From Pristiophorus japonicus (lineage: Eukaryota): DNA of 64,000 nt. The translations under genes were made by a program, and so were the position numbers. Positions 29,042 to 64,000 of the stretch are shown piece by piece (position 1 is the stretch's first letter; the number at the start of each line of letters is the position of its first letter). The notes beneath the pieces were generated by a model. The model searched no databases. It saw nothing but the letters and a program-made list of their open reading frames with translations, and was not told the origin of the DNA. The DNA lies in assembly GCF_044704955.1 (NCBI RefSeq), contig NW_027251843.1, positions 868,001-932,000 on the forward strand, written 5' to 3'.

Positions 29042-29164
29042 AGGTCAATGGTGAGGCTACAATTAGCGTCAGTGTACCGGGGTCAGGCAGGGTCACTGCT
29101 CCCAATGATCCCGTGACCTCCTGGAAGGTCAGAGTGCGCGGACAATGGCTGAGGGTCAGGATCA
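29042..29164. promoter_or_regulatory. Cluster of nuclear-receptor half-sites (DR4, everted repeat-6) about 1.1 kb upstream of the C exon
   Basis: AGGTCA 29042; GGGTCA-ggca-GGGTCA 29080-29095; TGACCT-cctgga-AGGTCA 29114-29131; GGGTCA-GGATCA 29153-29164. Also present in the copies at 9285-9410 and 63843-63966. Confidence 0.45.
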
Positions 29165-34751: not shown

Positions 34752-35196
34752 TCTCTGGACTCACACTGGGACAATGAGCCCACTTGGGGAGCTCAGTCTC
34801 TGGGCTCACACTGGGACAATGAGGCCACTTGGGGAGCTCAGTCTCTGGGCTCACACTGGGACAGTGAGCCCACTTGGGGAGCTCCGTCTCTGGGCTCACA
34901 CTGGGACAGTGAGCCCACTTGGGGAGCTCAGTCTCTGGGCTCACACTGGGACAATGAGCCCACTTGGGGAGCTCAGTCTCTGGGCTCACACTGGGACAAT
35001 GAGCCCACTTGGGGAGCTCAGTCTCTGGGCTCACACTGGGACAGTGAGCCCACTTGGGGAGCTCCGTCTCTGGGCTCACACTGGGACAGTGAGCCCACTT
35101 GGGGAGCTCAGTCTCTGGGCTCACACTGGGACAGTGAGCCCACTTGGGGAGCTCAGTCTCTGGGCTCACACTGGGACAGTGAGCCCACTTGGGGAG
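34752..35196. repeat. 45-bp minisatellite, ~10 copies, in the J-C intron
   Basis: Unit TCTCTGGGCTCACACTGGGACAGTGAGCCCACTTGGGGAGCTCAG, visible as the PKWAHCPSVSPETEL repeats in ORF 34657-35418. Confidence 0.96.
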
Positions 35197-35199
35197 AGG

Positions 35200-35445
35200 A
35201 GCTGAGCCCCAGCCAGAGGTAGTGCCTTCAGGAGTGAGATGGGGAGCAGATGATGGGCAGCCTGTGGTGTAGAGGGGAGACATTTCACCGGCCGAGGGCA
35301 GGTGCTGAGCCCGTTTACCTGTAAGAATGTGGTAAGTGGATGGGGAAAGTGGGCCGGGCACTGAGGTAACGTCCTGTGTTGCTGGTGGAACATCTGCTCC
35401 GTCACGTGTGACAAACACGCAGACACGTCAGACGGACATCTGGGA
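35200..35445. promoter_or_regulatory. Candidate J-C intronic enhancer (E-box/RUNX cluster)
   Basis: Non-TE island with CAGATG 35247, TGTGGT 35263 and 35328, GGCAGGTG 35297 (kappaE2-like), CATCTG 35391 and 35437, GTCACGTG 35401 and ACGTCA 35425. Confidence 0.5.
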
Positions 35446-35449
35446 TGGG

Positions 35450-38100
35450 GGGATTGTCCTATGGAGAGATCGAGTATATTAGGCTTATATTCTCTTGTGT
35501 TTCGAAGAATGAGAGGGGATCTCATTGAAACATACAATATTCTGACAGGGCTTGACAGGGTAGATGCAGGGAGGATGTTTCCTTTGGCTGGGAAGTCTAG
35601 AACCAGGGGTCACAGTCTCAGAATAAGGGGTCGGCCATTTAGGACTGAGATGAGGAGAAACCTCTTCACTCAGAGTGTGATGAATCTGTGGAATTCTCTA
35701 CCCCAGAGGGCTGTGGAGGCTCAGTCCTTGAGTATATTCCGGAGATCGATAGATTTTTGGATATTAAGGGATCGATGGATATGGGGACAGTGCAGGAAAG
35801 TGGAGTTGAGGTAGAAGATCAGCCATGATCTCATTGAATGGTGGAGCAGGCTCGAGGGGCCAAATGGCCTCCTCCTGCTCCTAATTCCCATGTTCTTATG
35901 GAATGTTAATCCGTGATCTGGGGATTTTCTGCTGGGTCCAAGTTTAATCAGCAGGGGAATTGTGTGAGTCCCAGTTAACAAAAAGAAAAGAGAAATTAAA
36001 GAAAGACCTGCATTTATATAGCACCTTTCACACCTCAGGATGTTCCAAAGTGCTTCACAGCCAATGAAGTACATTTTGAAGTGTAGTCACTGTTGTAATG
36101 TGGCCAACACGGGAGCCAATTTGTGCACAGCAAGCTCCCACACACAGCACTGAGGTAAATGATCTCTTCACGGAGGAGGATACAAATAACTTCCCAGAAA
36201 TGCTCGTGAACTATGGGTCCAGTGAACAAGAGGAATTAAAGGAAATGATTATTAGTAAGAAAATAGTGCTGGAGAAACTAATGGGCCTGAAGGCCGATAA
36301 ATCCCCAGGGTCTGATGATCTGCATCCCAGAGTATTAAAAGGGTAGCCATGGAAATAGTAGATACATTGATTGTCATCTTCCAAAATTCTATAGATTATG
36401 GAACAGTTCCTGCAGATTGGAGGGTGGCAAATGTAACCCCACTATTTAAAAAAGGAGGGAGAGAGAACGGGGAACTACAGACCGGTCATTAATAGGGAAA
36501 ATGCTAGAGTCTATTATAAAGGATGTGATAACGGCGCACTTAGATAATATCAACGGGGTTAAAGACAGTCACGTGGATTTATGAAAGGAACCTACTGGAG
36601 TTTTTTGAGGATCTAACTGATAGAATAGATAATGGAGAACACAGTGGATGTTGCATATTTGGATTTTCAGAAGGCTTTCGATAAAAATCCCACATAAGAA
36701 GTTAGTGTGCAAAATTAAAGCACATAGGATTGTGGGTAATGTATTGGCATGGATTGAAAATTGGTTAACTGACAGGAAACAGTCGGAATAAATGGGTGTG
36801 TTTCAGGGTGGCGGGCAGTGACGAGTGGGGTACCACAGGGATCAGTGCTTGGGCCCCAGATATTCACAATGTATAAATAAATGATTTGAATTAAGGAACC
36901 AAATGTAATATTTCCAAGTTTGCTGACAGCACAAAATTAGATGGGATTATGAGTTGTGAGGAGGATGCAATGAAACTTAGATAGGTTGAGTGAGTGAGCA
37001 AACACATGACAGATGTAACATATTGTGGATAAATGTGAAATTACTCACTTTGGTAGGAAAAACATAAGGACAAAGTATTATTTAAATGGTGATGGTTTGT
37101 GAAGTGTCAATGTACAGAGGGACCTGGGTGTCCTTGTACACCAGTCAGTGAAAGCAAACATACAGGTGCAGCAAGCAGTTAGGAAAGCAAATGGTACGTT
37201 GGCCTTCATTGGAAGAAGATTTGAGCAACGAGGTCTTACTACAGGGCCTTGGTGAGACCGCACCTGGAGTATTATGTGCAGCTTTGGTCTCCTTAACTAA
37301 GAAAGGATATCCTTGCCATAGAGGGAGTGCAGCGAAGGTTCACCAGACTGATTCCTGGGATGGCAGGACAGTCGTATAAGGAGAGATTGGGTCGACTGGG
37401 CCTGCAGTCACTGGAGTTTAGAAGAATGAGGGGATCTCAGTGAAACGTAAAAAATTCTGACTGGGTTGGATAGACTGGATCTGGGGAGGATGTTTTCCCG
37501 GGCTGGGAAGTTTAGAATAAGTGGTCACAATCTCAGGATACGAGGCAGGAAATTTAGGACCGAGATGAGGAGAAATGTTTTCACTCAGAGGGTGGTGAAC
37601 CTGTGGAATTCTCTACCACAGAAGGCTGTGGAGGCCAAGTCACTGAATATATTTAAGAGGCAGATCGATGGATTTCTAGAAACATAGAAACATAGAAAAT
37701 AGGTGCAGGAGTAGGCCATTCGGCCCTTCTAGCCTGCACCACCATTCAATGAGTTCATGGCTGAACATGCAACTTCAGTACCCCATTCCTGCTTTCTTGC
37801 CATACCCCTTGATCCCCCTAGTAGTAAGGACTTCATCTAACTCCTTTTTGAACATATTTAGTGAATTGGCCTCAACAACTTTCTGTGGTAGAGAATTCCA
37901 CAGGTTCACCACTCTCTGGGTGAAGAAGTTTCTCCTCATCTCGGTCCTAAATGGCTTACCCCTTGGCTTACAAAAGGCATCAAAGGGTATAGGGAAAAAG
38001 AGGGAATATGGTGTTGAGACAGGGGATCAGACATGATCATATTGAATGTCGGTGCAGACTCGAAGGGCCGAATGGCCTACTACTGCTCCTATTTTCTATG
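35450..38100 (+). mobile_element. Several degenerate CR1 fragments and a SINE in the J-C intron
   Basis: RRMRGDLIE, KSPGSD and WNSLP motifs; a nested antisense CR1 tail at ~37680-37965. Confidence 0.82.
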
Positions 38101-39187
38101 TTTAAGTGATGTAGGTTGAGGGATAAATATCGGCCTGAACTCGAGCCACAGAAACAGCAACTGAGAGTCTCCCCACAACCCTGGAGCACTGCAGCCGCCG
38201 GATTGCGAGCCCTGCTGCCCCTGTTTGTGATCAGAAGTTGGACAGGAGGTGAGCGGGGGCTGGACAGATCAGAGTTGGAGCTGGGGGAGGTGGGACCTCG
38301 GGAGTGTCAGTGTGCTGAGGCTGAGCTCAGTTATATCAGAGACTGTGACAGGAGCACAGACTTCCCCCAGCGAGCTCACTCACTCACACCCACACTCTGC
38401 CCGTGTCTCACACACCGTGTCTGTCACACTGAGACAGGCAGGAGGCTCGGGAGCGATTTCCGTGGATGGTGCAGGGATGGGACCGCAGTGTGCCAACGTC
38501 CAGATCTCCTCCACACGGTGGGTAACAGTTCGTTACTTATACTTTGCTGAGTGAAGGGGGAGTGTGGGTAAAGGAATACAGCCGGGTTCCCTGTCATACA
38601 CAGCACTCTTCAATTAACCCTTTCATTCACCGCAGCTCCCCACCATATTATATAACCCATACACAGGCACTGGAGAGGGTGCAGAGAAGGTTTACAAGGA
38701 TGGGACCAGAAATGCGAGGGTGTACATATCAGGAAAGGATGAACAGACTGGGGTTCTTTTCTCTTGAGGCTGAGGGGTGACCTGATAGAGGTCTTTAACA
38801 TTAGGAAAGGTTTTGATAGAGTGGATACAGAGAGAGTGTTTCCACTTGTGGGGAAGAGCAGAACTAGAGGCCATCAATATAAGATAGTCAGCAAGAAATC
38901 CAATCGGGAATTCAGGAGAAAATTCTTTACCCAGCAAGTGGTGAGAATGTGGAACTGGCTACCACAGGGAGTGATTGAAGTGAATAGTATCGATGTATTT
39001 AAGGGGAGGCTAGACAGGGATATGAGGGAGAAGGGAATAGAGGGTTATGCTGATAGATTTAGATGAGGAAAGACGGGAGGATCGAGTGTAATCATTTGTA
39101 AACTAACACCTTCGCATATTCAGCATTTGTATCGAAGAAAGATTCAGTATTTAAAGTGTTAATAACGGAGCATTGGAGTTTACTTAC

Positions 39188-39222
39188 TCAGTCTGAGCTT
39201 GGTTCCTTTACCGAACGTGAGC
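39188..39222 (-). CDS. IGKJ: Ig light chain J segment LTFGKGTKLRL
   Basis: Minus strand G CTC ACG TTC GGT AAA GGA ACC AAG CTC AGA CTG A|GTAAGT. It has the FGxG motif and a canonical phase-1 donor matching the C exon. Confidence 0.96.
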
Positions 39223-39261
39223 CACAGTGACAGTTTCCAGTGCAGCGGCTGTACAATATCC
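39223..39261 (-). other. J recombination signal sequence, 23-bp spacer
   Basis: Plus strand CACAGTG (39223-39229), 23 nt, ACAATATCC (39253-39261; 7/9 match to ACAAAAACC). V-12/J-23 is the kappa configuration. Confidence 0.93.
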
Positions 39262-39280
39262 TCCGTCCCTGGCTCATTCA

Positions 39281-39520
39281 GTCTCTCTCCCCCTCTCTCT
39301 GTCTGTGTGTGTGTGTGTGTGTCTCCCTCTGTCTCTTTCTCAGTGTCTCACTCTATCTGTTGCTCTCTCGGTTTCTCTCTCACTCTCCTTCATTTTTTCT
39401 CTCTCTCTCACCTTTCTCCTTCACTCTCTCTCTGCATCTTCCCCTCACTCACTCCCTCTCTCACTCAATCCCTCTATCTCTCTCTCTCCCTCATTCTCTC
39501 TCTCCCTCCCTCTCCCTGTG
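39281..39520. repeat. (CT)n/(GT)n low-complexity tract beside the J RSS
   Basis: Pyrimidine-rich microsatellite starting about 20 bp beyond the J nonamer. Confidence 0.85.
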
Positions 39521-39888
39521 TCCGAGCTGTCTGTGGCAGTGCCCAGGAGATCCGACGTGTTTGGGACAAATCTCCCAGCTGCCCTTCCCGCCCCATGAGA
39601 CGGTAACCCTGGGGCCATGGAATTGCTGGAGAATGAAAGTCTCCGTCACACAGGGCTCACCTCTTTGTGCCCCTTGAACAACGGGCTCCGTCTGCAAGCG
39701 AGATGTTTGTGTTGCTGACACAGGCCTTCCTCGGGGATCATTCTAAAATAACGAGTTTTAGGGGCTTTAGAAACCTGTTTGCTCAGTCCGTGACTCGTGT
39801 GCACATGGAGTGTGAGAGGATGCAGCCCCTCTTCCACTATTTGAAGGGGCTGCTCCTCGATTTCTGGCTCACTTCAGTCCCACGCTCC

Positions 39889-40380
39889 TGGGCCTGGTCA
39901 CCCGGTGCGGGGGGAGTGGGCAGGTCGGAGGGCCTCCCCGTGGGCCTGCTCCTGGGCCTGGCCACCCAGTGCCGGGGGAGTGGGCAGGTCGGAGGGCTTC
40001 CCCGTGGGCCTGCTCCTGGGTCTGGTCACCCGCTGCGGGTGGAGTGGGCAGGTCGGAGGGCTTCCCCGTGGGCCTGCTCCTGGGTCTGGTCACCCGCTGC
40101 GGGTGGAGTGGGCAGGTCGGAGGGCTTCCCCGTGGGCCTGCTCCTGGGTCTGGTCACCCGCTGCGGGTGGAGTGGGCAGGTCGGAGGGCTTCCCCGTGGG
40201 CCTGATCCTGGGTCTGGTCACCCGCTGCGGGTGGAGTAGGCAGGTCGGAGGGCCTCCCCGTGGGCCTGCTCCTGGGCCTGGCCACCCAGTGCCGGGGGAG
40301 TGGGCAGGTCGAAGGGCCTCCCCGTGGGCCTGCTCCTGGGTCTGGTCACCCGCTGCGGGTGGAGTGGGCAGGTCGGAGGT
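39889..40380. repeat. 64-bp G-rich tandem repeat (~7.6 copies) between V and J, expanded from a Tx1-like LINE fragment
   Basis: Unit GGTCACCCGCTGCGGGTGGAGTGGGCAGGTCGGAGGGCTTCCCCGTGGGCCTGCTCCTGGGTCT. It encodes GRSEG.PVGLLLG, as in Tx1-like ORF 32350-32730 (GRSEGLLVGLLLG). Confidence 0.92.
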
Positions 40381-40941
40381 GACCATCCACAGGTCTCAGT
40401 TGGAAGGGGCCCATGGGGTGGCCGCACTGCCTGCCTGTCTCCCTTCGGGGGCTTTGTCCACACCCGGGTGGACCTGGGGACGGAGCCCAGGTTAGGTCTG
40501 AGGCCTTCTGCGACGGGTGGGCACCGCAGGGCCTTGAGTGTGGGGTGGGCAGGGAAAGAGCATGACCATTTCACTTGTTCACTGTCCTATCATGTTTATG
40601 CTTTGGGTTTAATAAGTTGTGGCCCTCTCAATAGTGGGGGGTTTGTGAGATTATTTGGATTGAGGACACAGGACCACCCAGTGTCTCCGTGCTGTCTGAA
40701 TGTACAGAGTAGAGCTGTGAGATTCTCAGTGATGAAGACACAGCCCCAACTCCTCTCTGACCCACCCCATCCTTTCCCAATTCACTGCAGCTTCCAGCTG
40801 AATATTCCTGCCGTCACTCCCATCGAGCTGTGTGTCAGTCATGTGTAAAACCGTACAGGAGGTGGGGCTGTGTGTCCATTATTATATATTATATATAACT
40901 GTGGGGTGAGTCAGTACAGGAGGTGGGGCTGTGTATATTGA

Positions 40942-40969
40942 GGTTTTTGTACGGCTGTGTATCACAGTG
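40942..40969 (-). other. V recombination signal sequence, 12-bp spacer
   Basis: Coding strand: CACTGTG (40969-40963), 12 nt, ACAAAAACC (40950-40942). The nonamer is perfect; the heptamer differs from CACAGTG at position 4. Confidence 0.95.
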
Positions 40970-41271
40970 TAGAGGGTAGTTGCTATATTGCTGACAGTAA
41001 TAGTCTGCGACATCCTCGCTCTGCACGTTGCTGATGCTCAGGGTGAACATGTTGGACTGTTGACTGCCGGTGAAGCGATTGGAGGTTCCAGTGAAACGAG
41101 CTGTTGCTGCATAGATCAGCAGAGTGGGTTTCTGCCCGGCTTTCTGCTGGTACCAAGCAACATAACCGCTGCTAACAGATGCACTGGCGGTACAGGTGAT
41201 GGTTGCAGTCTGTCCCTCACTCACTGACAGCACCGGGGGAGACTGGGTCATGATGATGTCCCCACTGATAC
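40970..41271 (-). CDS. IGKV: Ig light chain V exon, kappa type (shark type III/NS4-like), unrearranged
   Basis: TTTCAG|GT acceptor. Translation is (G)[100 protein letters not shown]. Both Cys, WYQQK, LLIY and DxADYYC are present with no stops, and an RSS follows directly. Confidence 0.96.
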
Positions 41272-41460
41272 CTGAAATGGGGAAATGGGGAAAGAAAGTG
41301 AAGTAAGCACTGTCACAGAAAGACGCTGTAAAATGAGAGATTGCTCGAGACACTGAGCTCTCCTCTAGTGTCAGCATTTGCCCTTCAATCACTGGTCAGT
41401 CAAGTTGGACAGAAATCGACAGCAGGGAGATATTAAACGCGGAAGGAGAGAGATTGGTAC

Positions 41461-41509
41461 CTGCGACACAGAATGCCAAAGGCCAGATCAGCTGGATGGG
41501 TGAAATCAT
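41461..41509 (-). CDS. IGKV: Ig kappa-type light chain leader exon (L-part1), MISPIQLIWPLAFCVA(G)
   Basis: Minus strand reads ACC ATG ATT TCA CCC ATC CAG CTG ATC TGG CCT TTG GCA TTC TGT GTC GCA G|GTACC. This is a 49-nt phase-1 hydrophobic exon with a GT donor, 189 bp upstream of the V exon acceptor. Confidence 0.92.
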
Positions 41510-41568
41510 GGTGTCTGCTCCTGTCCCTGTGCCTGCTTACTGATAAACTGCCCTTCACTGGGCTCTGC

Positions 41569-41665
41569 TTTATAAACCTGCAGCCTGTGAGAGTCTCACT
41601 GCCCATCCCTCAGTATGTAAATGTCTTCACACAGAGAAAGCCACGTCAGCACATTTCACTTCCTC
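41569..41665 (-). promoter_or_regulatory. V promoter: TATA, variant octamer, CRE/XBP1-like site, Ets-IRF composite element
   Basis: TTTATAAA 41569-41576; ATTTACAT (light-chain octamer is ATTTGCAT) 41615-41622; TGACGTGG 41641-41648; GAGGAAGTGAAA 41654-41665. All lie 60-160 bp upstream of the ATG. Confidence 0.7.
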
Positions 41666-42254
41666 TTCTTCTCTCCCTCCATCTCCTTCCCGGTTCCTCT
41701 CTCTCTCTCTCTCTCTCTCAGCCTTCATTGCCCTATGTCTCACAGCTTTCCTCTACACCTCTCTGTCTCTGATTCATAGCCTCTCTCTCCCCGTTTCACT
41801 CTCTGTGTCACTCTCCCTTCCCCACAGACTCCCGGTGCAGCACACTAAAATGCAGAGTAAACCTCCCTGTGCCCTGCCCCATCAATGGATGTTAACCGTT
41901 GACCCCAGAAAATGCATTCTCCTGGAGTAAGGCCCCATTCCCCACAGTGGCCATCCCTTGGCCTCTCTCAGTGCACTGGCTGTTTATTGCCCAATTAAGG
42001 GCCTTTTCTCAGTGGAGACCAGTTTGGACAGAAAGCTGATTTCATGAAGGCCCAGCAGAGGGAGGAGATCCTCACCCCATCAGTGTGAGCTGGAGCGACA
42101 GGACAGAGTCTGACCCACTGCCCCATCCTGTCCGCTCAGAACACCTACGAATCCTTTCCCCTTCCATGGCCCCGCTCCAGGTCAGGAGTTTTTGCTGGGA
42201 TCAGGTGCCGACGATCCAACATTTACAACAGGAAGGATGCACACTCCACATCCC

Positions 42255-42680
42255 ACTGGTTCTCCAATAGGGCCCACAAAACATAGCCCCTTCCTATAGG
42301 TCCTCCAATAGGGGCCAGGAAACATGGCTCCTTCCTTTTGATCCCCCAATAGGGACCAGGAAACATCGATCCTTCCTATTGGTCCCCCAATAGGGACCAG
42401 GAACCATCGTTCCTTCCTATTGGTCATCGAATAGGGCCCAGGAAACATGGCTCCTTCCTATTGTTCCTCGAATAGGGCCCAGGAAACATGGCTCCTTCCT
42501 ACTGGTCCTCGAATAGGTCGCGTGAAACATGATACCTTCCTATTGGTCCCCCAATAGGAACCAGGAAACATGGTCCCTTCCTGTTGATCCCCAAATAGGG
42601 ACCAAGAAACATGGCTCTTTCCTATTGGTCCTCCAATAGGGATCAGGAAACATGGCTCCTTCCTACTGGTTTTCCAATAG
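42255..42680. repeat. 41-bp palindromic minisatellite (~10 copies) upstream of V
   Basis: Unit GGAAACATGGCTCCTTCCTATTGGTCCTCCAATAGGGACCA at 42318, 42359, 42400, 42441 and onward; one more unit at ~44150-44198. Confidence 0.92.
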
Positions 42681-43555
42681 TGTGAGGTGGAGCATTGTCG
42701 TTAGGAAGATCGAGAATAGGGTTTGTGCGTTAATGCAGCCCTGCTTGACTCCGGTCCGAATGTGGATTGCGTCTATGATGGATCCGTTGGTTAGGACCAT
42801 GGCTTGCATGTCGTCGTGGTGCAGGCTGAGAATGGGGACAAACTTTTGGGGGCAGCCGAAATGGAGGAGGATGGTCCACAGACCCTCGCGGTTAACAGTG
42901 TCAAAGGCCATTGTAAGGTCAAAGGTGGCCATGGACAAGGGTTGGTGCTGTTCCCTGATTTTCTCTTGCAGTTGTCGCGCCGTAAATATCATGTCCGTTG
43001 TACCCCGTAGTGGACGGAATCCGCATTTTGACTCCGGCAGGAGCTCCTCAGCCACAGGGAGAAGACGGTTGAGGAGGATTCTCGCGATGACTTTCCCAAT
43101 GGCTGATAACAGGGAGATTCCTCTGCTGTTGCCGCAGTCGAACTTGTCCCCTTTTTTAAAGATGGATCACGATTACTGCATCTCTGCGATCTCCCGGCAT
43201 GCTCTCCTCCCTCCAGGTGAGAGAGATGAGGTCATGCATTCATGTCAATAGTGACGCTCTGCCATACATTAATGCCTCAGCGGGGATTCCATCCGTCCCC
43301 GATGCCTTGTTGCTCTTGAGCTGACAGATGGCCTTTTCAACCTCGTGCAGGGCTGGGGTTTTACTGAGAAGGTGATGGGTAGCATGCTGCACGATGGAGT
43401 CAAGGACACTCAGATCTAAGGCAGATTCTCGATTAAGGAGATCTTCAAAGTGTTCCTTCCAGCAGGTTCTGACTGCCTCAGTGTCCTTGATGGGTGTCTC
43501 CTCGTTCTTGGCCAGCAGTGGGGTGGGGCCTTGGGTGCTTGGGCCGTAGGTGGAT
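42680..43555 (-). mobile_element. RTE-clade LINE RT fragment
   Basis: ELLPESKCGFRPLRGTTDMIFTARQLQEK..EQ..PL...FDL..AFDTVNR, GVKQGC. Confidence 0.85.
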
Positions 43556-43809
43556 TGACTGCGGTGTAAGTATTTTACCTACCCCTAAATCCCTAAAATC
43601 CCGTACGCAAGGTCCCACTACCCATCGCCCATCCTCGGCCTACCTTCCAGGTCGACCTGCCTACTGCCATGTCCCTCCAGCTGAACCCTCGCTGCTCACT
43701 CCCCGTTGGCCGACTCAGCTGCTCCAACCTATCCCGGCGAACTCAACAGCTGGGAGCCTCCGACCCGCCCCATCCACAGGTTTGGGCCCGACCTTCACTC
43801 CTCACCCTA

Positions 43810-44000
43810 ACGTACGGGCCTCCCTCCCTCCCTCCCTCCCCCCCGGCGATGCTCGGGCCTCCCTCCCTCCCCCCCGGCGATGCTCGGGCCTCCCTCCCTC
43901 CCTCCCCCCCAGGCGATGCTCGGGCCTCCCTCCCTCCCCCCGCCCCCCACCCGGTGACACTCGTGCCTCCCTCACTCCCGGCGACGCTCGGGCCTCCTTC
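43810..44000. repeat. GC-rich degenerate tandem repeat (~30-35 bp unit)
   Basis: CGGCGATGCTCGGGCCTCCCTCCCTCCCCCC, about 5 copies. Confidence 0.75.
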
Positions 44001-44303
44001 CGGCCGCTGACCCCACTCAGCGGCGGAGTCCATGGTGAGCACAATGTCTGTGGTCTCTCTGACCTTTCCTCCTTCCACAAAATGGATCTCTGACCATCAC
44101 AATACCTGCCCTCAGATAGGCCTTGGTTTTCTCACTGAATGATGCCGCTCCTCCACTAGAGACCAGGAAACATGGCTCCTTCCTATTGGTTCTCCAAAGA
44201 CTGAGCTTCGAACGCCACATCCTCTTATTTCCATCTCCAACGCTGCCCATCTCCGCCCTACATCAGTCCCTTGATGGAAGAAACCCATGGCTCTGCTTGG
44301 CTC

Positions 44304-44500
44304 TGTTGTGTATCTGTAAAGCATGCACTCCCATGTTCTGCCACCAGGGAGCACATCCCCTGAAGTCCCAAGGGATCCCAGCATCCCTTGGGAGCACTGT
44401 ATATAAGCCAGTCCCTAAGGCCTGTTCCTCACTCTGGACTGTCTTGATAAAGACTGAGGTCACTATTAATTTAACCTCCCTGTGTGCAGTCTCATCTCTG
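44304..44500 (+). mobile_element. Solo LTR-like element
   Basis: TGTTG start, GCCACCAGGGAG, TATATAA and a GATAAA poly(A)-like signal; related to 4224-4403. Confidence 0.55.
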
Positions 44501-44600
44501 AACTCGATTATTTCGTTGTCCCCTCCTGGCTTCCTTCATCCGCTCTCCATAAACCCCAACTTTCCAAAATGCAGTGTCCGTACCCTGCCTCACTCCAATA

Positions 44601-44671
44601 TGAACCCTGACCTCACTGACCTACTACCTCTCACCTCACTGACCTACTGCCCCTGACCTCACTGACCTACT
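44601..44671. repeat. 23-bp tandem repeat x3 built from TGACCT
   Basis: TGACCTCACTGACCTACT at 44608 and 44654, with a variant at 44631. Confidence 0.8.
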
Positions 44672-45374
44672 CATCATCATCATTGGCGGTCCCTCGAACG
44701 AGGATGACTTGCTTCCAAATTAGTTCACAGATGTTTCAATGAAGGACCCGATGATCCTGAACTCCAATTGAGGGGCTGGAAGATGCCTGTGCGTGGATTT
44801 TTTTTAACATGTGTGACCGTTGCAAATCAGCCACCACACGGGCTTGACAGAGCTAGGCCTTTATCCAGTGGCAAAGATTAACCCGGATGACTGGAGGCCT
44901 GCTCTGCACGGACCCAGTGCGCTTACATATCGCAGTATGGGCTGGCCCGTGCTGCCCCTGGGCCCTCGGCTCTTTTGGTCCCCGATCCCTCATTTGCCGC
45001 ACCTCCACCACGATCCCTCACCGCTCCACCGCCACCAACATTCGCCGCACCTCCGCCACGATCTCTCGCCGCACCTCTGCGCCAAACAGTCGCCTGACCT
45101 CCACCACGATCTCCCGCCGCACCTCCGCACCAAACATTTGCCGGACTTCCGCCACGATCACCAACCGAATCTCAGCCACGATCCCTCATCGCTCCTCCAC
45201 CTCGATCACTCACCACACTTCCCCGCGACCTTCCCACTCCTCTGCTTTACCTGGGTCCGCCGATGTTCCTGCCCACGCTCCAAATGCCGACCTGGGTCCT
45301 GATGACATCACCCAATCACCCACCTCGAAGCCATCGCTCACTTGGAGCAGCTCGCGCTGGAAGTTCTCATGGTA

Positions 45375-47820
45375 TGATTGTAGTGGGTGATTTTAACCTA
45401 CACATTGATTGGACAAATCAAATTGGTCAGGGTAGCCTTGAAGAAGAGTTGATCGAGTGCATAAGGGACGGGTTCCTTGTACAGTATGTAAAGAAACTAA
45501 CCGGGGGCAGGCTATCTTAGATCTGGTCTTGTGCAATGAGACAGGATTAATAAACAATCTCCCAATAAACGATCCCCTTGGAATGAGTGACCATATCATG
45601 GTTGAATTTCAAATTTAGATCGAGGGCGAGAAAGTTGAATCTCAAACTAGTATACTAAGATTAAATAAAGGAGACTACAAAAGTATGAGGGCAGAGTTGG
45701 TTAAAGTGGACTGGGAAAATAGATTAAAATGTAGGACGGTTAATGAACATTTGAGGAGATATTTAATCACTCTCAAGAAAAATATATTCCAGTGAGGAGG
45801 AAAGGATGTAAAAGAAAAGATAGCCATCCGTGGCTAACTAAAGAAATAAAAGACGGTATCCAATTTAAAAACAAGGGCATACAAGGTGGCCAAAATTCGT
45901 AGGAGGACAGAAGACTGGGAAGCTTTTAAAATCCAGCAAAGAATGACTAAAAAAATGATTAAGAAATGGAAGATGAAAGTAAACTAGCACAAAATATAAA
46001 AACAGATAGCAAGAGTTTCTACAGGTATATAAAAAGGAAAAGAGCGGATAAAATAAATGTTGGTCCCTTAGAGGACGAGACTGGGGAATTAGTCATGGGG
46101 AACATGGGGAACATGGAGATGGCAGAAACACTGAGCAAATATTTTGTAGCAATCTTTACAGTAGAGGACACTAAAAATATCCCAACAGTGCATAGTCAGG
46201 GGTCTATGGGGGGGAGAGGAACTTCACACAATCACAATCACTAAGGAGGTGGTTCTCAGTAAGATAATGGGACTAAAGGCGGATAAATCCACTGGACCTG
46301 ATGGCTTGCATTCTAGGGTCTTAAGAGAAGTAACGACAGGGATAGTGGATGCATTGGTTGTAATTTACCGAAATTCCCTGGATTCTGGGGAGATCCCAGC
46401 AGATTGGAAAACTGCAAATGTAATGCCCATATTAAAAAAAGGATGCAGACAAAAAACAGGAAACTATAGAACAGTTGGGGAAATATTAAAGAAATAGTAG
46501 CAGGACATTTGGAAAATCATAATTCAGTCAGGCAGAGTCAGAATGGATTTATGAAGGGGAAGTCATGTTTGACAAATTTGCTGGAATTCTTTGAGGATGT
46601 AATGAGCAGGGTGGATAAAGGGGAACCAGTGGATGTGGTGTATTTGGATTTCCAGAAGGCATTCAATAAGGTGCCACATTAAAGGCACAGGATAAAAGTT
46701 CACGGAGTTGGGGGTAATATATAAACATGGATAGAGGATTGGCTAACTAACAGAAAACAGAGTCGTGATAAATGGTTCATTCTCGGGTTGGCAATCAGTC
46801 ACTAGTGGGATGCTGCAGGAATCAGTGCTGGGACCCCAATTATTTACAATCTATATCAACGACTTGGAAGAAGGGACCGAGTGTAATGTAGCCAAGTTTG
46901 CTGACAATATAAAGAAAGGAGTAAACACAAGGTATGAGGAGGAAACAAAAAACCTGCAAAAGGACATAGACAGGCTAAGTGAATGGGCAAAAATTTGGGA
47001 GATGGAATATAATGTTGGAAAGTGTGAGGTTATACACTTTGTCAGAAAAAAATCAAAGAGCAAGTTATTATTTAAATGGAGAAAAATAACAAAGTGTTGC
47101 AGTGCAGCGGGAACTGGGGGTCCTGGTGCATGAAACACAAAAGGTTATTATGCAGGTTCAGCAAGTGATCAGGAAGGCCAATGCAATCTTGGCCTTTATT
47201 GCAAAGGGGATGGAGTATAAATGCAAGGAAGTGTTTGCTACAGTTATACCGGGTATTGGTGAAGCCACAACTGGAATACTGCGTGCAGTTTTGGTTTCCA
47301 TATTTAAGAAAGGATACACTTGCTTTGGAGGCATTCAGAGAAGGTTCACTAGGTTGATTCCGTAGATGAGGGCAATGACTTATGAGGAAAGGTTGAGTAG
47401 GTTGGGCCTATACTGAATGGAAATCAGAAGAATGAAAGGTGATCTTATCGAAACATGTAAGATTATGAGGGTGCTTGACAAGGTGGATGCAGAGGCTGTT
47501 TCCACTGATAGGGGAGACAAGAACTAGGAGGCATAATCTTAGAATAAGGGGCCGCCCATTTAAAACTGAAATGTGGAGGAATTTCTTCTCTGAGGGTTGT
47601 AAATCTGTGGAATTCGCTGCCTCAGAGAGTTGTGGAAGATGGGTCATTGAATAAATTTAAGACAGAAATAGACAGTTTCTTAACTGATAAGGGAATAAGG
47701 AGTTATGGAGAGCAAGCAGGGAAGTGGACCTGAGTCCATGATCGGATCAGCCATGATCATATTAAAAGGCGGAGCAGGCTCGAGGGGCCGTAGGCCTACT
47801 CCTGCTATTTCTTATGTTCT
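45375..47820 (+). mobile_element. CR1 ORF2 fragment upstream of V
   Basis: GDFN, GPDGLH, ESVLGP, KFADN and a 3' tail TTCTTATGTTC. Confidence 0.9.
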
Positions 47821-48364
47821 AATCCCTCCTCCTCTCCAGCTCTCTCTCCTCCATCTAACGCCATCCTTTCACCCAGGCCTTCAATCACCCTTCCTAAAGC
47901 CCCCCGAAACCCCGCTCCCCACGTTCTTACAGCAGCGATGTGAAGTGTCTTGTGACCTTTGGCACGTTAAAGGCCCCAGATCAATGCAGACTGTGTGTGG
48001 ATTTCGGGTGAGGACAGTGCTGGACACAGTGGTGAGGCCTCCTGCAGTCAGATATCCTGGTGATATGGTGATAGGGTCCAGGCTTACACACGTGGAATGA
48101 GGAAGTAGGTGAGGTCGGAATGTGCTGTCGGGGACAATGGAACTGGACCCCAGCATGAAGCCTTCCTCAGGAGAGGAGAGGGAATGTTCAGAGCCCTGGA
48201 CTCCATTTCCCACACCAGGCATTTCCTGTCCCAGTGAATGAATGAGATGCCAATGTTGTGCCCAGGTTAGGGGCAGTCTAATGCTGTGGGCCCAGGTCTA
48301 CAAGAGGGAATTGGATATATACTTGAAAAGGAACAATTTGCTGGATTACGGGGAAATAGAGGGG

Positions 48365-48815
48365 GGGTGGGACTAATTGGGTAATTCTTTCAAAGAGCTG
48401 GCACAGGCACGATGGGCCGAATGGCCTCCTTCTGTGCTGTAAGATTCGAGGCTGTGAGCGCGGTTCACAGTTTTCTCCCGCGTCATTAACAAACGTACAG
48501 CTGTGACAACCTCCCTCTTTCACTTCCTCTGTGGGTGAAGTTTTATTCTTCCGATCTGACAGTCTCTTCAGTTATTTTTTGCACGGGGGATTTCTGCTGT
48601 GGTCTGAGTCTCTAATAATAACCGTCCAATCAGGCAGAATAACAGCAGCTCGGACCGGCTAGGACAGCGGACCCAGGCTCAGTGCTGACCTTGCAACGAC
48701 CTCCTCACCAACATCTGGGGACTTGTGTCAAAAGTGGGAGAGCTGCCCCACAGACGAGTCAAACACCAGCCTGACATAGTCCTACTCACAGAATCAGACC
48801 TTTCAGCCAATGTCC
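48365..48815 (+). repeat. Left arm of an inverted duplication (partner 58455-58905) containing a unique regulatory-like segment
   Basis: ORF 48278-48523 (-) is nearly identical to 58686-58979 (+). The segment contains TTTCACTTCCTC, CAGCTG, GGGGGATTTC, TGTGGT and CCAAT. Confidence 0.9.
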
Positions 48816-52814: not shown

Positions 52815-53800
52815 TCGGGTTTGGGACACATTTCGTCGCCCGGATCTGACTTTTGTACGCCCCCATGGATTGTCTGATTAAGGTTAACGGGTCTTTGACG
52901 GCGTCCCTTCGCTTTGGGAAAGGGGTGTGCCAGGGATGCCCAATGCCTGGCCAGTTATATGTCATCTGCGTGGAGCCTTTCCTGCGCCTCTTGCGGAAGA
53001 GGTTGACGGGACTGGCTCTGTAAGGGCCGGGCGTGGAGGTTGTCCTCTTGGCTTACACTGATGATGTGCTCCTCATGGTCGAGGATCCCATTGACCTACT
53101 GAGGATGCATGAGTGCCAGGAGATTTACTCGGCCGCATCCTCCGCCAAGATCAATTGGGAGAAATGTTCCGGACTCCTGGTCGGTCACTGGCAGATGAAC
53201 TCACTGCCAGAGGAGTCCAGGTCTTTTTCCTGGAGCATGACCCATCTCCTCTATGTGGGAGTCTACCTTAGCCCTGATGAGGAAGCCTGGCTGGTGAACT
53301 GGCAAGAGCTGGAGGACAAAGTTGCCGCTCGCCGAGGGCGCTGGACAGGACTGTTCCAAGTGCTGTCCTACAGGGGTCGAGCACTAGTCATAAACCAGCT
53401 AGTGGCCGCAATGCTGTGGTACCGGCTGGTCACTTTGCCCCCCCCCCCCCCTGCTTTTGTCGCCAAGATACAGAAGAAGCTGGTGGACTTCTTCTGGACA
53501 ACAGGAAGCACTGGGTCTCTGCTGTGGTTCTGAGTCTCCTGTTTAGGGAGGGAGGTCAGGCGTTGGTGTGCGTCAGTACCCAGCATGCGACTTTCCATCT
53601 TCAGATCCTGCAGAGATACCTGTACGTCGAGCCCCTTCCTAGATGGTGTGCGCTGATGACATATTTCTTCCGCCAGCAGTACTGCCTCAATTATGACATG
53701 CAGCTCCTGTTTGTGAGCCTGGGGGCATCAGGAGCACCATGTGGGGCTGCATGTCTTTTACCAGGAACTCATCAGGGTCTGAAACAGTGTTGCCACCAAG
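52815..53800 (+). mobile_element. Tx1-like LINE RT fragment
   Basis: GVCQGCP, AYTDD, KINWEK, YVGVYL and LVDFFW. Confidence 0.85.
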
Positions 53801-55119
53801 CGAGGAGATGCAGAGGGGGTAGAGATGTTCTCTATCCAAGGGAGCGAGGAGGCTGCACCAGACAAACGTTTCAAAGGCAGTGAGACCAGGACCTGAGGAC
53901 CTGGATGCAGTGCCGCCAAATGTTCAATGACCTAACGGAGTGGTCAAGGTCAGCAAATTCATCTTCAAAGTCCGTGTCCCACCAACAGCACCACTAGCCT
54001 CACACGCTGCTCAATGCACCACGCCCCCATCACCCACCTACCAACAAACTCCAGCAATCAGGACTCGTACACAAGAATATAAGGAAAAGGAACAGGAGTG
54101 GGCCGTATGGCCTCTCGAGCTGGTCCACCATTCAATAAGGTAATGGCTGATCTGATCTTGGCCTCAACGCCACATCCCTACCTGTTCCCCACAACCCGTG
54201 ACTCCCCGTAGTTCAAGAATCTGTCTATCTCCATCTTAAATATATTCAATGACCCAGCTTCCACAGCTCTCTGGAATAGAGATTTCCGAAGATTCACGAT
54301 TTTATTTCAGCACTGTGGCCAAGAGGACGCTGTGATGGTCAGTAACAGAGGGACGCTAAGGTGTGGGACTAATGTTGAAAGGGGATTGGGGATGTGGTCA
54401 CTGGGACCACAGGTGGATGATTCGATCCCGGATATCCCGGCCAGAAAGTGGCTGTCTGGGTTGCCTCCTTCCTTCCACTTCCTCCTCCTCCCTTTGCGAG
54501 CAGAAGCTGGAAATCTGAAATAAAGACAGTAAATGCTGGAAATACTCAGCAGGTCAGACAGCAGCTTGAGCTAAAATGTTAATTCTGTCTCTCTCCATGG
54601 ATGCTGCCTGACCTGCTGAGTATTTCCAGCATTCCCGGTCTTTCCAGGGACCTTTCTTTACCACCCAAGGCCTTGAACACGTCCAGCAGCACACCTTGCA
54701 TTCCCTGCACACTGAAAAAATATTTAACATTTATTGCACCAAGCTACTACTTCCATAAAATATATTGTTTAAAACAGACCAGAGCTTAAATGCAAACATA
54801 CCTGAAAGATGTGTGCCCCATTAAGAAGCACCAACAGCATCTGTGCAGGGCTGCTTCACGCCTGCTTTTCTGTGTGTGCTTAGGGCAGGGCCATATGGTG
54901 AGCGCAAACGCCCCACTTAACAGTCATGGCTCGAGCCAGGCATTGGTGTCACCATCTGACAATCCTCATTTTGAGGCGAGTGCTGTCAACGACAGCGGTA
55001 AGGCCCTTACCAAAATGGTGGATGACGTGTCCCGGGCCGCAAGCAAGGCGGCTGCGATTAGTTGAACAAAACCCTCTTATTGGCTGGTGCTTGTCCGGGG
55101 AAATTCTAGGCCAAAGAAT

Positions 55120-58454: not shown

Positions 58455-58905
58455 GGACATTGGCTGAAAGGTCTGATTCTGTGAGTAGGACTATGTCAAA
58501 CTGGTGCTTGACTAGTCTGTGGGGCAGCTCTCCCACTTTTGGCACAAGTCCCCAGATGTTGGTGAGGAGGACGTTGCAGGGTCAGCACTGAGCCTGGGTC
58601 CGCTGTCCTAGCCGGTCCGAGCTGCTGTTATTCTGCCTGATTGGACGGTTATTATTAGAGACTCAGACCACAGCAGAAATCCCCCGTGCAAAAAAAACTG
58701 AAGAGATTGTCAGATCGGAAGAATGAAACTTCACCCACAGAGGAAGTGAAAGAGGGAGGTTGCCACAGCTGTACGTTTGTTAATGACGTGGGAGAAAACT
58801 GTGAACCGCGCTCACAGCCTAGAATCTTACAGCACAGAAGGAGGCCATTCGGCCCATCGTGCCTGTGCCGGCTCTTTGAAAGATTTACCCAATTAGTCCC
58901 ACTCC
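58455..58905 (-). repeat. Right arm of the inverted duplication (partner 48365-48815)
   Basis: Reverse-complement identity that includes the CR1-tail/unique/LINE junctions; GAGGAAGTGAAA at 58740-58751. Confidence 0.9.
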
Positions 58906-58919
58906 TCCTCACTTTAAGA

Positions 58920-61445
58920 ACATACGAAATAGGAGCGGGAGTAGGCCACACAGCCCCTCGAGCCTGCTCCACCATTTAATACGATCATGGCCAATCCGAT
59001 CATGGACTCAGCTCCACTTCCCTGCCCGCTCCCCATAACCCCTTATTCCCTTATCGGTTATGAAACTGTCTATCTCTGACTTAAATATATTCAATGACCC
59101 AGCCTCCACAGCTCTCTGAGGCAGCAAATTCCACAGGTGTACAACCCTCTGAGAGAAGAAATTCCTCCTCATCTCAGTGTCCTCTACCGTAAAGACTGAT
59201 ACAAAATCTTTGTTCAGAGTTTCTGCCATCTCCATGTTCCTCATCACTAATTCCCTGGTTTTGTCCTCTCAGGGACCATCTTTAGCCACTCTTTTCCTTT
59301 TTATATACTGATAGAAACTCTTGCTATCTGTTTTTATATTTTGTGCTCGTTTACTTTCATCGTCTATCTTCCCTTTCTTAATCATTTTTTTAGTCATTCT
59401 TTGTTGGCTTTTAAAAGCTTCCCAATCTTCTGTCCTTCCACTAGTTTTGGCCACTTTGTATGCCCTTGTTTTTAATTGGATACCGTCCTTTATTTCTTTA
59501 GTTAGCCACGGATGGCTATCTTTTCTTTTGCACCCTTTCCTCCTCACTGGAATATATTTTTCTTGAGAGTTGTGAAATATCTCCTTCATATGTACGCCAC
59601 TGTTCATCAGCCGTCCTACACTTTAATCTATTTTCCCAGTCCATTTTAGCCAACTCTGCACTCATACCTTTGTAGTCTTCTTTATTTCAGCTCAGTACGC
59701 TGGTTAGAGATCCACCTTTCTCACCCTCCATCTGAATTTAAAATTGAACCATGTTATCATCACTCAGTCCAAGGGGATCCTTTACTGGGAGATTGTTTAT
59801 TAATCCTGTCTCATTATACAGGACCAGATCTAAGATAGCTTGCCCCCTGGTTGGTTCCATTACATACTGCTCAAGGAACCCGTCCCTTATGCACTCTATC
59901 AACTCTTCCTCAAGACTACCCTGACCAATTTGATTTATCCAATCAATGTGGAGGTTAAAATCACCCATAATTATTGCTGTTCCATTTTTACAAGCCCCCA
60001 CTATTTCTTGGTTTATTCTCCGACCAACAGAGTTGCTACTGTTAGGGGACCTATAGACTATGCCCACCAGTGACTTTTTCCCCTTATTATTCCTTATCTC
60101 CTCCCAAACAGTTTCAACATCCAGATCATTTGAGCCAATATCATTTCTCACGATTGCAGTAATTCCATCCTTTGTCAACAGAGCTACCCCACCTACTTTA
60201 CCTTTCTGTCTGTCCTTTCCGGATTGTCAAGCACCCCTGAGTATTTAGTTCTCAGTCCTGGTCACCTTGCAACCACGTCTCTGCAATGGCTATCAGATGA
60301 TATTTATTTGTATCTATTTGTGCCATCAACTCAGCTATTTTGTTATTTAGGCAAAGAGCCTTTAAATTTGTTTTTTTATCCTTTTTATCTGCTTGTTTCC
60401 TCTCTCCTTCAAACTCACTTTCCTTATTTTTGCTTTCTAATTCCAGCTTTACTCCCCTCCCTACTGAATCTATTCTCTGGTTCCCATCCCCCTGCCAAGC
60501 TAGTTTAAACCCTCCCCAACAGCACGAGCAAATGCTCCACTCGTAGATATTGGTCCCGGCTCTGTTGAGGGGCAACCCGGTCGGCTTGTACAGGTCCCAA
60601 TGCCTCAGGAAACTAAAGCATCCTGCCTGCACCATCTCTCCAGCCACGCATTCATCTGCTCTATCCTCCTATTTCTGTATTCACTAGCTCATGGCATCGG
60701 GAGTAATCCAGAGATTAGAGAATAATTAGAGATTAAAGATTCTGAGAGAAGAAATTCCTCCTCATCTCAGTTTTAAATGGGCGTCCACTTATTCTAAGAT
60801 TAAGCCCCCTAGTTCTAGTCTCCCTTATCAGTGGAAACATCCTTTCTGCATCCACCTTGCATGGCCCCTCATAATCTTACATGTTTCGATAAGATCACCT
60901 CTCATTCTTCTGAATCCCAATGAGTCGAGGCCTAACCTACTCAACTTTTCTTCAAAAGACAACCCCCCTCATCTCTGGAATCAACCTCGTGAACCTTCTC
61001 TGAACTGCCTCCAAAGCAAGTCTATCCTTTCTTAAATATTGAAGCCAAAACTGCACGCAGTATTCCAGCTATGGCCTCACCAATACCCTGTATAACTGGA
61101 GCAAGACTTCCCTGCTTTTATACTCCATCCCCATTGCAATAATGGCCAAGATTCCATTGGCCTTCCTGATCACTTGCTGTACCTGCATACTATCCTTTTG
61201 TGTTTCATGCACAAGTACCCACAGGTCCCGCTGTACGGCAGCACTTTGCAATTTTTCTCCATTAGAATAATAACTTGTTCTTTGATTTTTTTCTGCCAAT
61301 GTGCATAACCTCACACTTTCCAACATTATACTCGATCTGCCAAATTTTTGCCCACTCACTTTGCCTGTCTATGTCTTTTTGCAGGTTTTTTGTATCCTCA
61401 TCACACATTGCTTTTCCTCCCATCTTTGTATTATCAGCAAACCTG
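58920..61445 (-). mobile_element. CR1 3' half interrupted by a 1.56-kb tail-less CR1 fragment (59179-60740)
   Basis: A 31-bp direct repeat at 59148-59178 and 60741-60771 flanks an ORF1-end/APE fragment. Confidence 0.82.
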
Positions 61446-61449
61446 GCTT

Positions 61450-64000
61450 GAAACCCCACATGAAACAGCCTTCCAGTCACAAAAACACCGTTGATCATTA
61501 CACTTTGCTTCCTGCCACTGAGCCAATTTTGGATCCAACTTGCCACTTTTCCTTGGATCCCTGGGCATTTTACTTTTCTGCCATGTGAGACCTCACCAAA
61601 AACCTTGCAAAAGTCCATGTGTACGACATCAAAGATGCAAAACTCATCGACTTTCCATGTTATCTCCGCAAAAAATTAAATCAAGTAAGTCAGGCACGAC
61701 CTTCCCTGAATAAATCCATGCTGACTGTCCTTGATTAATATGTCCCTTTCTATATGACAATTATTGTTTCCAATAATTTTCCCTCCACCAAGGTTCGGCT
61801 GACTGGCCTGTAATTACTCGGTCTATCCCGTTCTCACTTTTCAAACAAAGGTACACGTTAGCAGTCCTCCAGTCCTCTGGCACCACACCTGTCGCCAGAG
61901 TAGATTGGAAAATGATGGTCAGAGCCTCTGCTATATCCCCGCTTGCTTCTCTTAAAAGCCTGGGATACATTTCATCCGGGCCTGGTGATTTTTCTACGAT
62001 CAAAGATGCTAAGTTCCTTAATACTTCTTCTCTCACTATGTTTATCTCATCTAATATTTCACACTTGTCCTCCTTAATTGCAATGTCTGCATCGTCCCTC
62101 TCTTCTGTGAAGACAGATGGAAAATATTCATTAAGAACCATTACCCCGTCTTCCGCCTCCACACACAGGGTACCTTTTTGGTCTCCAATAGGCCCAACTC
62201 TTTCTTTAGTTATCCTCTTGCTCTTTATGTATTTATAAAACATCTTTGAGTATTCCTTGATTTTACTTGCCAGTATTTTTTCATGACCTCTCTTTGCATT
62301 TCGAATTTCCTTTTTAATTTCACCCCTGCACTTTCTATACACCTCTGGGCTTTCTGTAGTATTTAGCTCTGGGTATCTGACATAAGCTTCCCTTTTTTGC
62401 CTTATCCTACCCTGTATGCCCTTTGCCATCCAGGGGGCTCTAGATTTGGGAGTGCCACCCTTTTCCTTTGTGGGAACATACTTGCTCTGAACCCTCACTA
62501 TCTCCCCCTTGAATGCCTCCCACTGCTCTGACACTGATTTACCTTCAAGTAGCTGTTTCCAGCCCACTTTTGCTAAATCACCTCTCAGCTGAGTAAAATT
62601 GGCCTTTCCCCAATTGAGAACCTTTATTCCTGCTCTACCTTTGTCCTTTTCCATAACTACACTAAATCTAACTGAATTATAATCACGAGCACCACAATGC
62701 TCTCTCACTGATCTGCCTTCCACCTGCCCAGCTTCATTCCCGAAAACTAAGCCCAGAACCGCCCCCTCCCTTGCTGGGCTTGCTACGTACTAGCTGTAAA
62801 AGTTCTCCTGAATGCATTTGAAGAATTATGCACCCTCTATACCTTTGACACTGATTCCATCCCAGTTAATGTGAGGGGAGTTGAAATCCCCGACTATTGC
62901 TGCCCGATTGTTTTTGCACTTCTCAGCAAATTGCCGACATATTTTCTCTTCCATCTCCCTCTGACTGTTTAGGGGTCTATAGTACACTCCCAGCAGTGTG
63001 ATCGCCCCTTTTCTGTTCATCATTTTAAACCATATGGCCTCATTTGATGATCCTTCAAACATATCCTCCCTCTGTCAGAAGTGCCGTCTTTCAGATGAGA
63101 TGTTAAACCGAAGTCCCATCTGCCCTCTCAAGTGAACATGAAAGATCTCATAATCATTATTGGAAGGGCATGGGGGTTCTTCCCAGTGTCCTGGCCAATA
63201 TTTATTCCACAACTAACATAGTTAAAGCCGATGATCTGGTCATGATCTCATTGCAGTCTGGGAGCTTCATAGAATCAGAGAAATTTACAGCATGAAAGGA
63301 GGCCATTCGACCCATCGTGTCTGCACTGGCCGGCAAAGATCTATCCAGCCTAATCACACTTTTCAGCTCTTGGTCCATAGCCCTGTAGGTTACAGCACTT
63401 CAAGTGTACATCCAAGTAATTTTTAAATGTGATGAGAGTTTCTGCCTCTACCACCCTTTCAGTCAGTGACTTCCAGACCCCCCACCCCCTCTGGGTGAAG
63501 ATATTTCCCCTCAAATCCCCTCTAAACCTCCAAGCAATTACTTTAAAATCTATGCCCTGGTTGTTGGCCAATCTGCTTAAGGAAATAGGTCCGTCCTATC
63601 CACTCTATCTCGGCCCCTCATAATATTATACAACTCAATAAGGTCTCCCCTCAGACTCCTCTATTCCAAAGAAAACAACCCCAGCCTATCCAATCTTTCC
63701 TCATAGCTAAAATTTTCCAGTCCAGGCAACATCGTTGTAAATCTTCCTGTGTACAATTGCTTGTAAAGCACCTTGGGACATCCTGAGGTTGTGAAAGGCG
63801 CTATATAAATTCAAGGCTTTCTTTCATTGAAGTGGGAGGGCCCTGATCCTGACCCTCGGCCATTGTCGGCGCACTCTGACCTTCCAGGAGGTCACGGGAA
63901 TATTGAGAGCAGTGACCCGGCCTGACCTCGGTACACTTAGGCTAATTGTAGTCTCTCCTTTGACCTCACCCCGGTATGATTTTGAGCATCAGCCATGGCT
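61450..64000 (-). repeat. Inverted segmental copy of the J-C intron (~28700-31540)
   Basis: ORFs 62826-63062 and 61761-62723 match 29937-30923 and share the same SINE/CR1 junction. The unique RGGTCA module is inverted at 63840-63975. Confidence 0.92.

Follow-up and report, generated by a model that had tools for sequence, protein, structure and literature searches.

The kappa cluster and an inverted relic beside it

The window analysed here is the whole 64,000-nucleotide stretch of the Pristiophorus japonicus genome taken from contig NW_027251843.1 (positions 868,001 to 932,000), 48% of which is open reading frame 2 (ORF2) of CR1 elements. It carries on its minus strand an intact shark immunoglobulin (Ig) kappa cluster, in which a single variable (V), joining (J) and constant (C) segment lie in the same orientation with 12/23 recombination signal sequences (RSS). 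Near its end, the segment 58455-64000 is very probably the relic of a dead, inverted kappa cluster from which the leader (L), V and J are absent. The parts of the intact copy, hereafter the main cluster, that bear on this relic are:

41461-41509, minus: leader exon, with the promoter directly upstream (Ets-IRF word at 41654, variant octamer at 41615)
40970-41271, minus: V kappa, open frame, V-set domain PF07686, RSS with 12-bp spacer at 40969
39188-39222, minus: J (LTFGKGTKLRL), RSS with 23-bp spacer at 39223
28724-29032, minus: intron core, 0.7-1.0 kb before C, unique DNA, candidate intronic enhancer, deleted in the relic
27678-28006, minus: C kappa exon, open frame, C1-set domain PF07654
48359-48815, minus: upstream block, with its core at 48451-48689
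45384-47820, plus: upstream CR1, ORF2 amino acids (aa) 149-958 and 3' untranslated region (UTR)

With one V-J-C set, 12/23 RSS and a C that is 76-92% identical to the kappa/NS4-type chains of other sharks, the main cluster resembles the known shark Ig kappa (NS4/type III) genes, and from this C similarity we read it as kappa. The C exon is 92% identical to a Squalus chain, 76-85% to named shark kappa chains and 77% to a nurse shark chain. Three Pristiophorus japonicus light-chain models match it at 98-100% identity across 64-100% of the C length, and these bear the automatic name lambda-1-like. The nurse shark is described as having ~50 kappa (NS4) copies in PMC2193156 and ~60 in PMC5192425, pseudogenes among them.

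Self-BLAST and alignments recover in 58455-64000 an upstream block, CR1 pieces and J-C intron DNA, all of them in cluster order and co-inverted:

58455-58910, plus: upstream block, inverse of main 48815-48359, about 96.3-96.5% identical over ~457 nt
58581-58818, plus: conserved non-coding core, candidate enhancer, with an Ets-IRF-type word at 58740 and an E-box at 58766
58915-59178, minus: CR1 3' end (ORF2 aa 903-958 and 3' UTR), 89.5% to main 47565-47820
59179-60740, minus: out-of-order CR1 5' half (ORF2 aa 13-425), lying between the copies of a 31-nt duplication
60741-61449, minus: C-terminal half of the CR1 reverse transcriptase (RT), starting just before FADN and ending at aa 912, 88.5% to main 46890-47594
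61449-61452: main junction, where the intron CR1 is cut between SG and VPQG and the second CR1 enters at AKFAD
61452-63975, plus: C-proximal J-C intron, inverse of main 31540-29033, comprising a CR1 5' part, a short interspersed element (SINE) piece, a CR1 3' end and unique DNA
63976-64000, plus: resumption of the intron, 21/25 to main 28723-28699 and 23/25 to a third relic described below

The upstream block consists of the start of a long interspersed element (LINE) endonuclease, a low-copy core and an old CR1 3' end, and in the main copy it lies ~7 kb upstream of the kappa leader. The intron of the relic is 88-92% identical to that of the main cluster depending on the block (89.3% by BLAST), and the match crosses several nested repeat boundaries. 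Its CR1 is 92.2% identical to the main copy, whereas an unrelated CR1 from that subfamily reaches 84.5-85.4%. Relic and main cluster have unique DNA and nested-repeat boundaries in common above this same-subfamily background, as expected of a cluster derivative, and the homology ends abruptly at 58455. What is missing between the two arms, namely promoter, L, V and J, amounts to 15,350 bp in main-copy coordinates, and no L, V, J or second C was found elsewhere in the 64-kb window. Block order and orientation, with promoter-L-V-J absent, support the view that the segment is a decayed kappa-cluster paralogue.

Much of this had been recognized in the initial annotation, which described 58455-58905 as the inverse of 48365-48815 and a switch near 61450 to the inverse of the J-C intron, running from 31540 back to 28700. 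Both descriptions hold, with slightly refined limits for the upstream block, and the letters quoted at the junction match. Apart from their two matches given above, the final 25 nt of the relic match every place in the window at no more than 17/25, and their 21/25 match to 28723-28699 shows that "back to 28700" was correct; overlooked was a 309-bp deletion just before them, which removed the equivalent of main 29032-28724, the most conserved stretch of the intron.

Kinship of the relic, the main cluster and a third relic

A further derivative is present on the other side of the main cluster:

8663-25629, minus: third relic, pieces of the J-C intron oriented as in the main cluster, equivalent to 28412-29501, 34266-35875 and 37677-37964

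Its intron pieces are 89-96% identical to the main copy, CR1s cut both of its sides, and it borders on a co-oriented CR1-CR1 join that is ~2 kb out of register. Neither a C nor a J was found for it within the window. It keeps the 309-bp conserved intron core at 96.8%, whereas its repeats stand at 87%.

The inverted relic had been proposed to be a head-to-head sister duplicate of the main cluster. The comparison of all three copies speaks for equal distances instead: in 469 shared columns the private differences number 25 for the main copy, 24 for the relic and 26 for the third relic, and only 2 of 246 columns unite main and relic against the outgroup. Palindromic head-to-head arms are rejected as well, since the 9.6 kb between the clusters contains no arms at relic-level identity, only five inverted matches that all lie at 68-84%. 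Among contigs from outside the window, the nine intron pieces listed, which were chosen for their likeness, show 27 differences from the relic in 920 letters, over which the main copy shows 71. By these distances the relic is one of many paralogues and not a special sister of the main cluster.

Two observations on repeats belong to the third relic. A 4616-bp unit is present there in three tandem copies (11607-25629) with 3-9 differences, which reflects either a very recent duplication or an assembly artefact. An intron minisatellite with a 45-bp unit is repeated 10 times in the main cluster (34746-35196) and twice in each third-relic unit (14094-14180).

The CR1-CR1 junction

The absence of promoter, L, V and J, put earlier at a loss of ~15 kb, is borne out, and it is the proposed route, recombination between co-oriented CR1s at nearly equivalent RT positions, that fails. 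The break in the intron CR1 lies at 31540, a position whose homologue is 46812, and the second CR1 enters at 46890, giving an offset of 78 nt (26 codons). The two CR1s that meet at the junction are identical at 247 of 397 positions (62%), with a longest identical run of 8 nt. Offset and identity together argue against in-register homologous recombination. Repeat-mediated non-allelic homologous recombination resembles the present case in its co-oriented flanking repeats and differs in register and identity: a homologous deletion should leave an in-register chimeric element and should involve high identity or a long identical tract, and neither is found here. At the main junction 2-3 nt match neither side cleanly, and the joins of the relic overall have 0-3 nt of microhomology or short filler.

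How far such a join would be expected by chance was judged from a simulation of all breakpoint pairs that remove L-V-J from the main cluster. Both ends fell in CR1 ORF2 in 20.3% of these deletions, and the two CR1s were co-oriented in 16.6%; a join within 78 nt of register occurred in 1.0% overall and in 6.2% of the co-oriented class. By these figures a CR1-CR1 join is unremarkable and a near-register join mildly notable, so that the latter, as a single event, is a modest sign of homeology guidance.

A scrambled CR1 next to the junction

The CR1 of the relic (58915-61449) is a mosaic in which ORF2 aa 727-912, aa 13-425 and aa 903-958 follow each other in minus-strand order. It had been described as one CR1 at 58920-61445 resembling 46890-47820; the out-of-order pieces show that the two are not collinear. 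The 31-nt duplication brackets the middle piece of 1.56 kb, whose joins have 3 nt of microhomology at 59178/9 and, at 60741, ~20 nt of filler containing a repeated 8-mer. Relic 59176-59967 is 89.8% identical to main 45384-46172, and nothing in the main cluster corresponds to 59968-60740. The CR1 3' terminus is intact and abuts an older element, and 540 bp of main-copy DNA (47821-48358) are missing between this terminus and the upstream block.

In CR1 trees of 8 and 9 window copies, the relic CR1 and the main upstream CR1 were mutually nearest (support 100/98 and 96/95), which agrees with the kinship suggested earlier. The family is very abundant, with a summed depth of 10^5-10^6 in outside contigs, and mutual grouping within the window may therefore mark a subfamily only. 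Two further marks of kinship, the FADN variant of the RT motif and an A7 run, are indeed present in both CR1s and are weaker than supposed. The FADN codons differ (GAC AAT vs GAT AAT), and the position probably belongs to a CpG. Within the family the length of the A run is variable; among the matches listed a longer run accounts for 6-11% of depth and no shorter one appears, and the run is taken as non-diagnostic. A single rare letter, at 59900, is also common to both CR1s. An RT protein search gave a best identity of 69%, and among the 120 matches listed 112 had FADD, 2 had FADG, 6 were unmatched and none had FADN; these proteins are mostly intact and thus do not make a fair null for decayed CR1 copies. 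A 25-nt CR1 pattern had no match in the metagenome and genome contigs searched, and Rfam gave no matches for the window.

The predicted orphan C exon

If the intron of the relic stays collinear beyond the window, its C exon should start at 64,694, in line with the earlier estimate of ~64.7 kb as far as the position is concerned. Only 694 bp of further collinearity are needed, and we consider it somewhat probable that a C exon is indeed present there on the plus strand. Of the 32 contig pieces listed from matching at 93%, where repeat-family contigs dominated and 514,039 further pieces fell outside the listing, none bridges any junction of the relic or reaches the predicted C. A search of sequencing runs listed at least 24 rows, of which 4, all from one sample, contained at least half of the words sought; no RNA run was among those listed, which carries no information on expression.

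Such a C would likely be silent, because it would have no promoter, would lie upstream of the live VJ but on the other strand, and would have lost the conserved intron core; according to PMC5192425, promoters appear tied only to V segments. For the same reasons the earlier suggestion that an orphan C could accept splicing is unlikely to apply. Cis-splicing of the live VJ to it is ruled out on strand and order.

How L-V-J may have been lost

The reading we prefer is that of an inverted kappa paralogue which lost L-V-J through CR1-CR1 end-joining and which has a probably silent C near 64,694; taken as a whole, we give it about even chances. Its ancestor would have been one of many kappa clusters, presumably functional for most of its history, since its repeats are ~10% diverged while its upstream core is only 2% diverged. 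Out-of-register end-joining would have repaired a break by linking two diverged CR1s of the same orientation, whose loose pairing may have guided the join, and promoter-L-V-J would thereby have been deleted. Template switching or successive deletions could account for the scrambled CR1. By analogy, the closest process appears to be the Alu-type out-of-register end-joining of PMC4356517, where Alus of 15-30% divergence are described as shifting from recombination to homeology-influenced end-joining. The two cases are alike in that co-oriented diverged repeats are joined out of register with the junction inside both. The Alu work concerns reporters in human cells, with mostly microhomology at the joins, whereas here a germline CR1 pair is 38% diverged and an extra rearrangement is present.

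Several points weigh against this explanation. The divergence of the junction CR1s exceeds the 30% maximum tried for Alus, and the CR1 content of the window together with the CR1-CR1 join at the third relic indicates that such joins are common here. A second deletion, the 540-bp loss, has to start exactly at the CR1 3' terminus, and it is right at this terminus that the flank of the relic CR1 differs from that of the main copy. Letters private to the relic CR1 are common to the main copy in only 1 of 8 ungapped sites. Finally, the third relic is broken off on its C side at the equivalent of 28412, that is, inside the 694-bp stretch that must be collinear for the predicted C; such relics can evidently lose their C side, which lowers the odds for a C here.

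The count of private letters comes from 32 of the 40 variant rows displayed, a display 10 rows short of complete, 8 having been dropped as they fall in the piece without main-copy counterpart. At the nine CR1 sites where at least 90% of the family depth is unlike the relic, the main copy had a gap once, the relic letter once and the majority letter seven times. The same test on the intron, which is known to be paralogous, found only 2 of 6 letters shared, one of them beside a gap, and the test is therefore weak.

A close rival to end-joining is retrotransposition-mediated deletion, which we regard as possible and clearly less probable than not. A new CR1, with priming close to the upstream block, would have become linked at its 5' end to the intron CR1, so that one event removed ~16.8 kb (31540-48359 equivalents) and the relic CR1 would not be a sister of 45384-47820. 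Both the 15-kb and the 540-bp losses would then follow from one event, and an intact 3' terminus set against an older element, with a flank unlike that of the main copy, fits a separate insertion, as do the 7 of 8 relic-private letters not common to the main copy and the great abundance of the family. For L1, PMC7058536 describes 90 such deletions of 0.5 kb-53 Mb without target duplication, whose 5' joins show short inserts or 1-5 nt of microhomology; the relic resembles them in its intact 3' terminus, truncated 5' end, lack of target duplication and short filler. Those L1 deletions were found in tumours, whereas here the element is a CR1, and the intact paralogue already has a similar CR1 near the site. 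The insertion would thus require as a coincidence that the main cluster has a CR1 end of the same subfamily and orientation 540 bp away. It would also have to accommodate FADN, A7 and the letter at 59900, which both CR1s have in common, and by itself it leaves the out-of-order 5' half unexplained.

It is less probable, indeed unlikely, that the relic never existed as a single complete cluster and is instead a patchwork, put together either between clusters or through partial templated duplication. Such an origin would agree with six junctions within 5.5 kb, the sharp end of homology at 58455, the higher identity of the upstream block (96.5%) than of the intron (88-92%), the lack of symmetric arms between the clusters and a third relic that is intron-only. 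Block order and orientation fit one cluster, however, and the same contrast in identity recurs between the main copy and the third relic (core 96.8%, repeats 87%), which indicates that it depends on the element rather than on the event.

We think it very unlikely that the relic is an assembly chimera between near-identical repeats, even in a region as repeat-dense as this one with the tripled 4616-bp unit in the same window. The joins link DNA that is 62% identical or unrelated, with filler, rather than long identical repeats; the private differences of the relic are evenly spread; and an outside contig exists with a single difference from the relic upstream core. The odds are slightly poorer still for the strict form of the earlier model, in which a direct head-to-head sister underwent in-register CR1 recombination and kept an orphan C that can be expressed. 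In its favour, the CR1s are co-oriented, they join near register and they are nearest neighbours in the window, but it conflicts with the offset, identity and short identical run at the junction, with the star-like distances among main copy, relic and third relic, and with the deleted intron core and lack of a promoter where promoters appear V-associated only (PMC5192425). RAG-mediated germline deletion via cryptic signals, in the manner of the kappa-deleting element, can practically be dismissed: RAG is reported as active on kappa (NS4) genes in the shark germ line (PMC2193156), but no RSS-like site was listed at 31540 or 46890, the nearest match (46926) lies inside the retained part, and no CAC-starting heptamer was seen by eye within +/-12 nt of either break.

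The relic of the preferred reading is an ordinary case, a new example at base level of the known birth-and-death debris in a shark kappa array. Where the members of a gene family are duplicated and lost over time, the origin of an Ig pseudogene by repeat-associated deletion is to be expected. The shark NS4 pseudogenes described in PMC2193156 are germline-joined genes, whereas the present relic is V-J-less and without L. A literature search over titles and the starts of abstracts, with few subscription journals covered, found no description of V-J-less kappa relics or of shark light-chain enhancers. More worth following than the deletion mechanism itself are the candidate enhancers.

Two conserved cores as candidate kappa enhancers

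Three paralogues that are ~10% apart in their repeats provide a natural footprint, and this reveals two conserved blocks. In the upstream core (48451-48689), main copy and relic differ at 4 of 238 positions, against 386 of 4000 in flanking repeats (Fisher p=2e-6). The intron core has 10 differences in 310 positions to the third relic, against 80 of 626 in flanking repeats (p=8e-7). Both p-values are optimistic because the core limits were chosen after the alignments had been viewed. The contrast between core and flank persists outside CpG sites, and part of it could stem from gene conversion or from lower mutation rates. Contig depth over the upstream core is 460-670, compared with 14 for the relic-like contig, which suggests tens of near-identical copies of this core.

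The 12-mer GAGGAAGTGAAA occurs at three sites in the 64 kb, in the promoter (41654), the upstream core (48518) and the relic core (58740), and main promoter and upstream core have 13 nt in common. We take this word of 12-13 nt to be an Ets-IRF composite. Of 265 window blocks, five share a 12-mer with the promoter, and these are the two cores just named and one site repeated in the tripled unit. Being a conserved non-coding block with Ets-IRF and E-box sites, the upstream core has the motif content of a B-cell Ig enhancer; no motif of the Ets-IRF or E-box type was found in the main copy of the intron core. Both the kappa promoter and the upstream core of the shark contain an 11-nt match, AGGAAGTGAAA, to the lambdaB PU.1 site of the mouse Ig lambda 2-4 enhancer (PMC4872103); the shark candidate element lies 6.9 kb 5' of the leader.

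Held at 97-98%, the two cores are candidate shark kappa enhancers as judged from conservation. The inverted relic retains the upstream Ets-IRF core, and the third relic retains the intron core. It is a speculative and rather improbable extension that the two cores make each kappa minilocus autonomous and that dead clusters leave spare enhancers flanking the live one; if this were true, spare enhancers could skew a B cell's choice of the minilocus to activate among the tens present. Limiting promoter-enhancer complexes have been proposed to explain exclusion among shark miniloci (PMC2435157), and the two cores offer concrete candidates for testing this idea.

Other features of the window

The promoter octamer of the main cluster (41615-41622) is a one-mismatch variant, and the sole perfect octamer of the window is located at 34665, within the J-C intron. 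The main J nonamer has two mismatches and the main V heptamer one. The V-J gap (39223-40969) is ~1.75 kb long and contains a 64-bp minisatellite (39884-40379) related to the repeat at 32559-32720. A 41-bp minisatellite is present upstream of the main promoter (42257-42680), and a single unit of it lies 1.5 kb off at 44149-44197. A different non-LTR (long terminal repeat) element has two inverted copies, 88% identical, one in the J-C intron (33429-34096) and one between the clusters (53133-53802). In three Pristiophorus japonicus light-chain models the V or C is truncated, either because further kappa clusters are broken or as an artefact of gene models built on clusters that have not rearranged. 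Kappa C proteins of shark type (81-85%) are filed under Aeromonas and Salmonella on contigs of <1 kb, and these are probably contamination.

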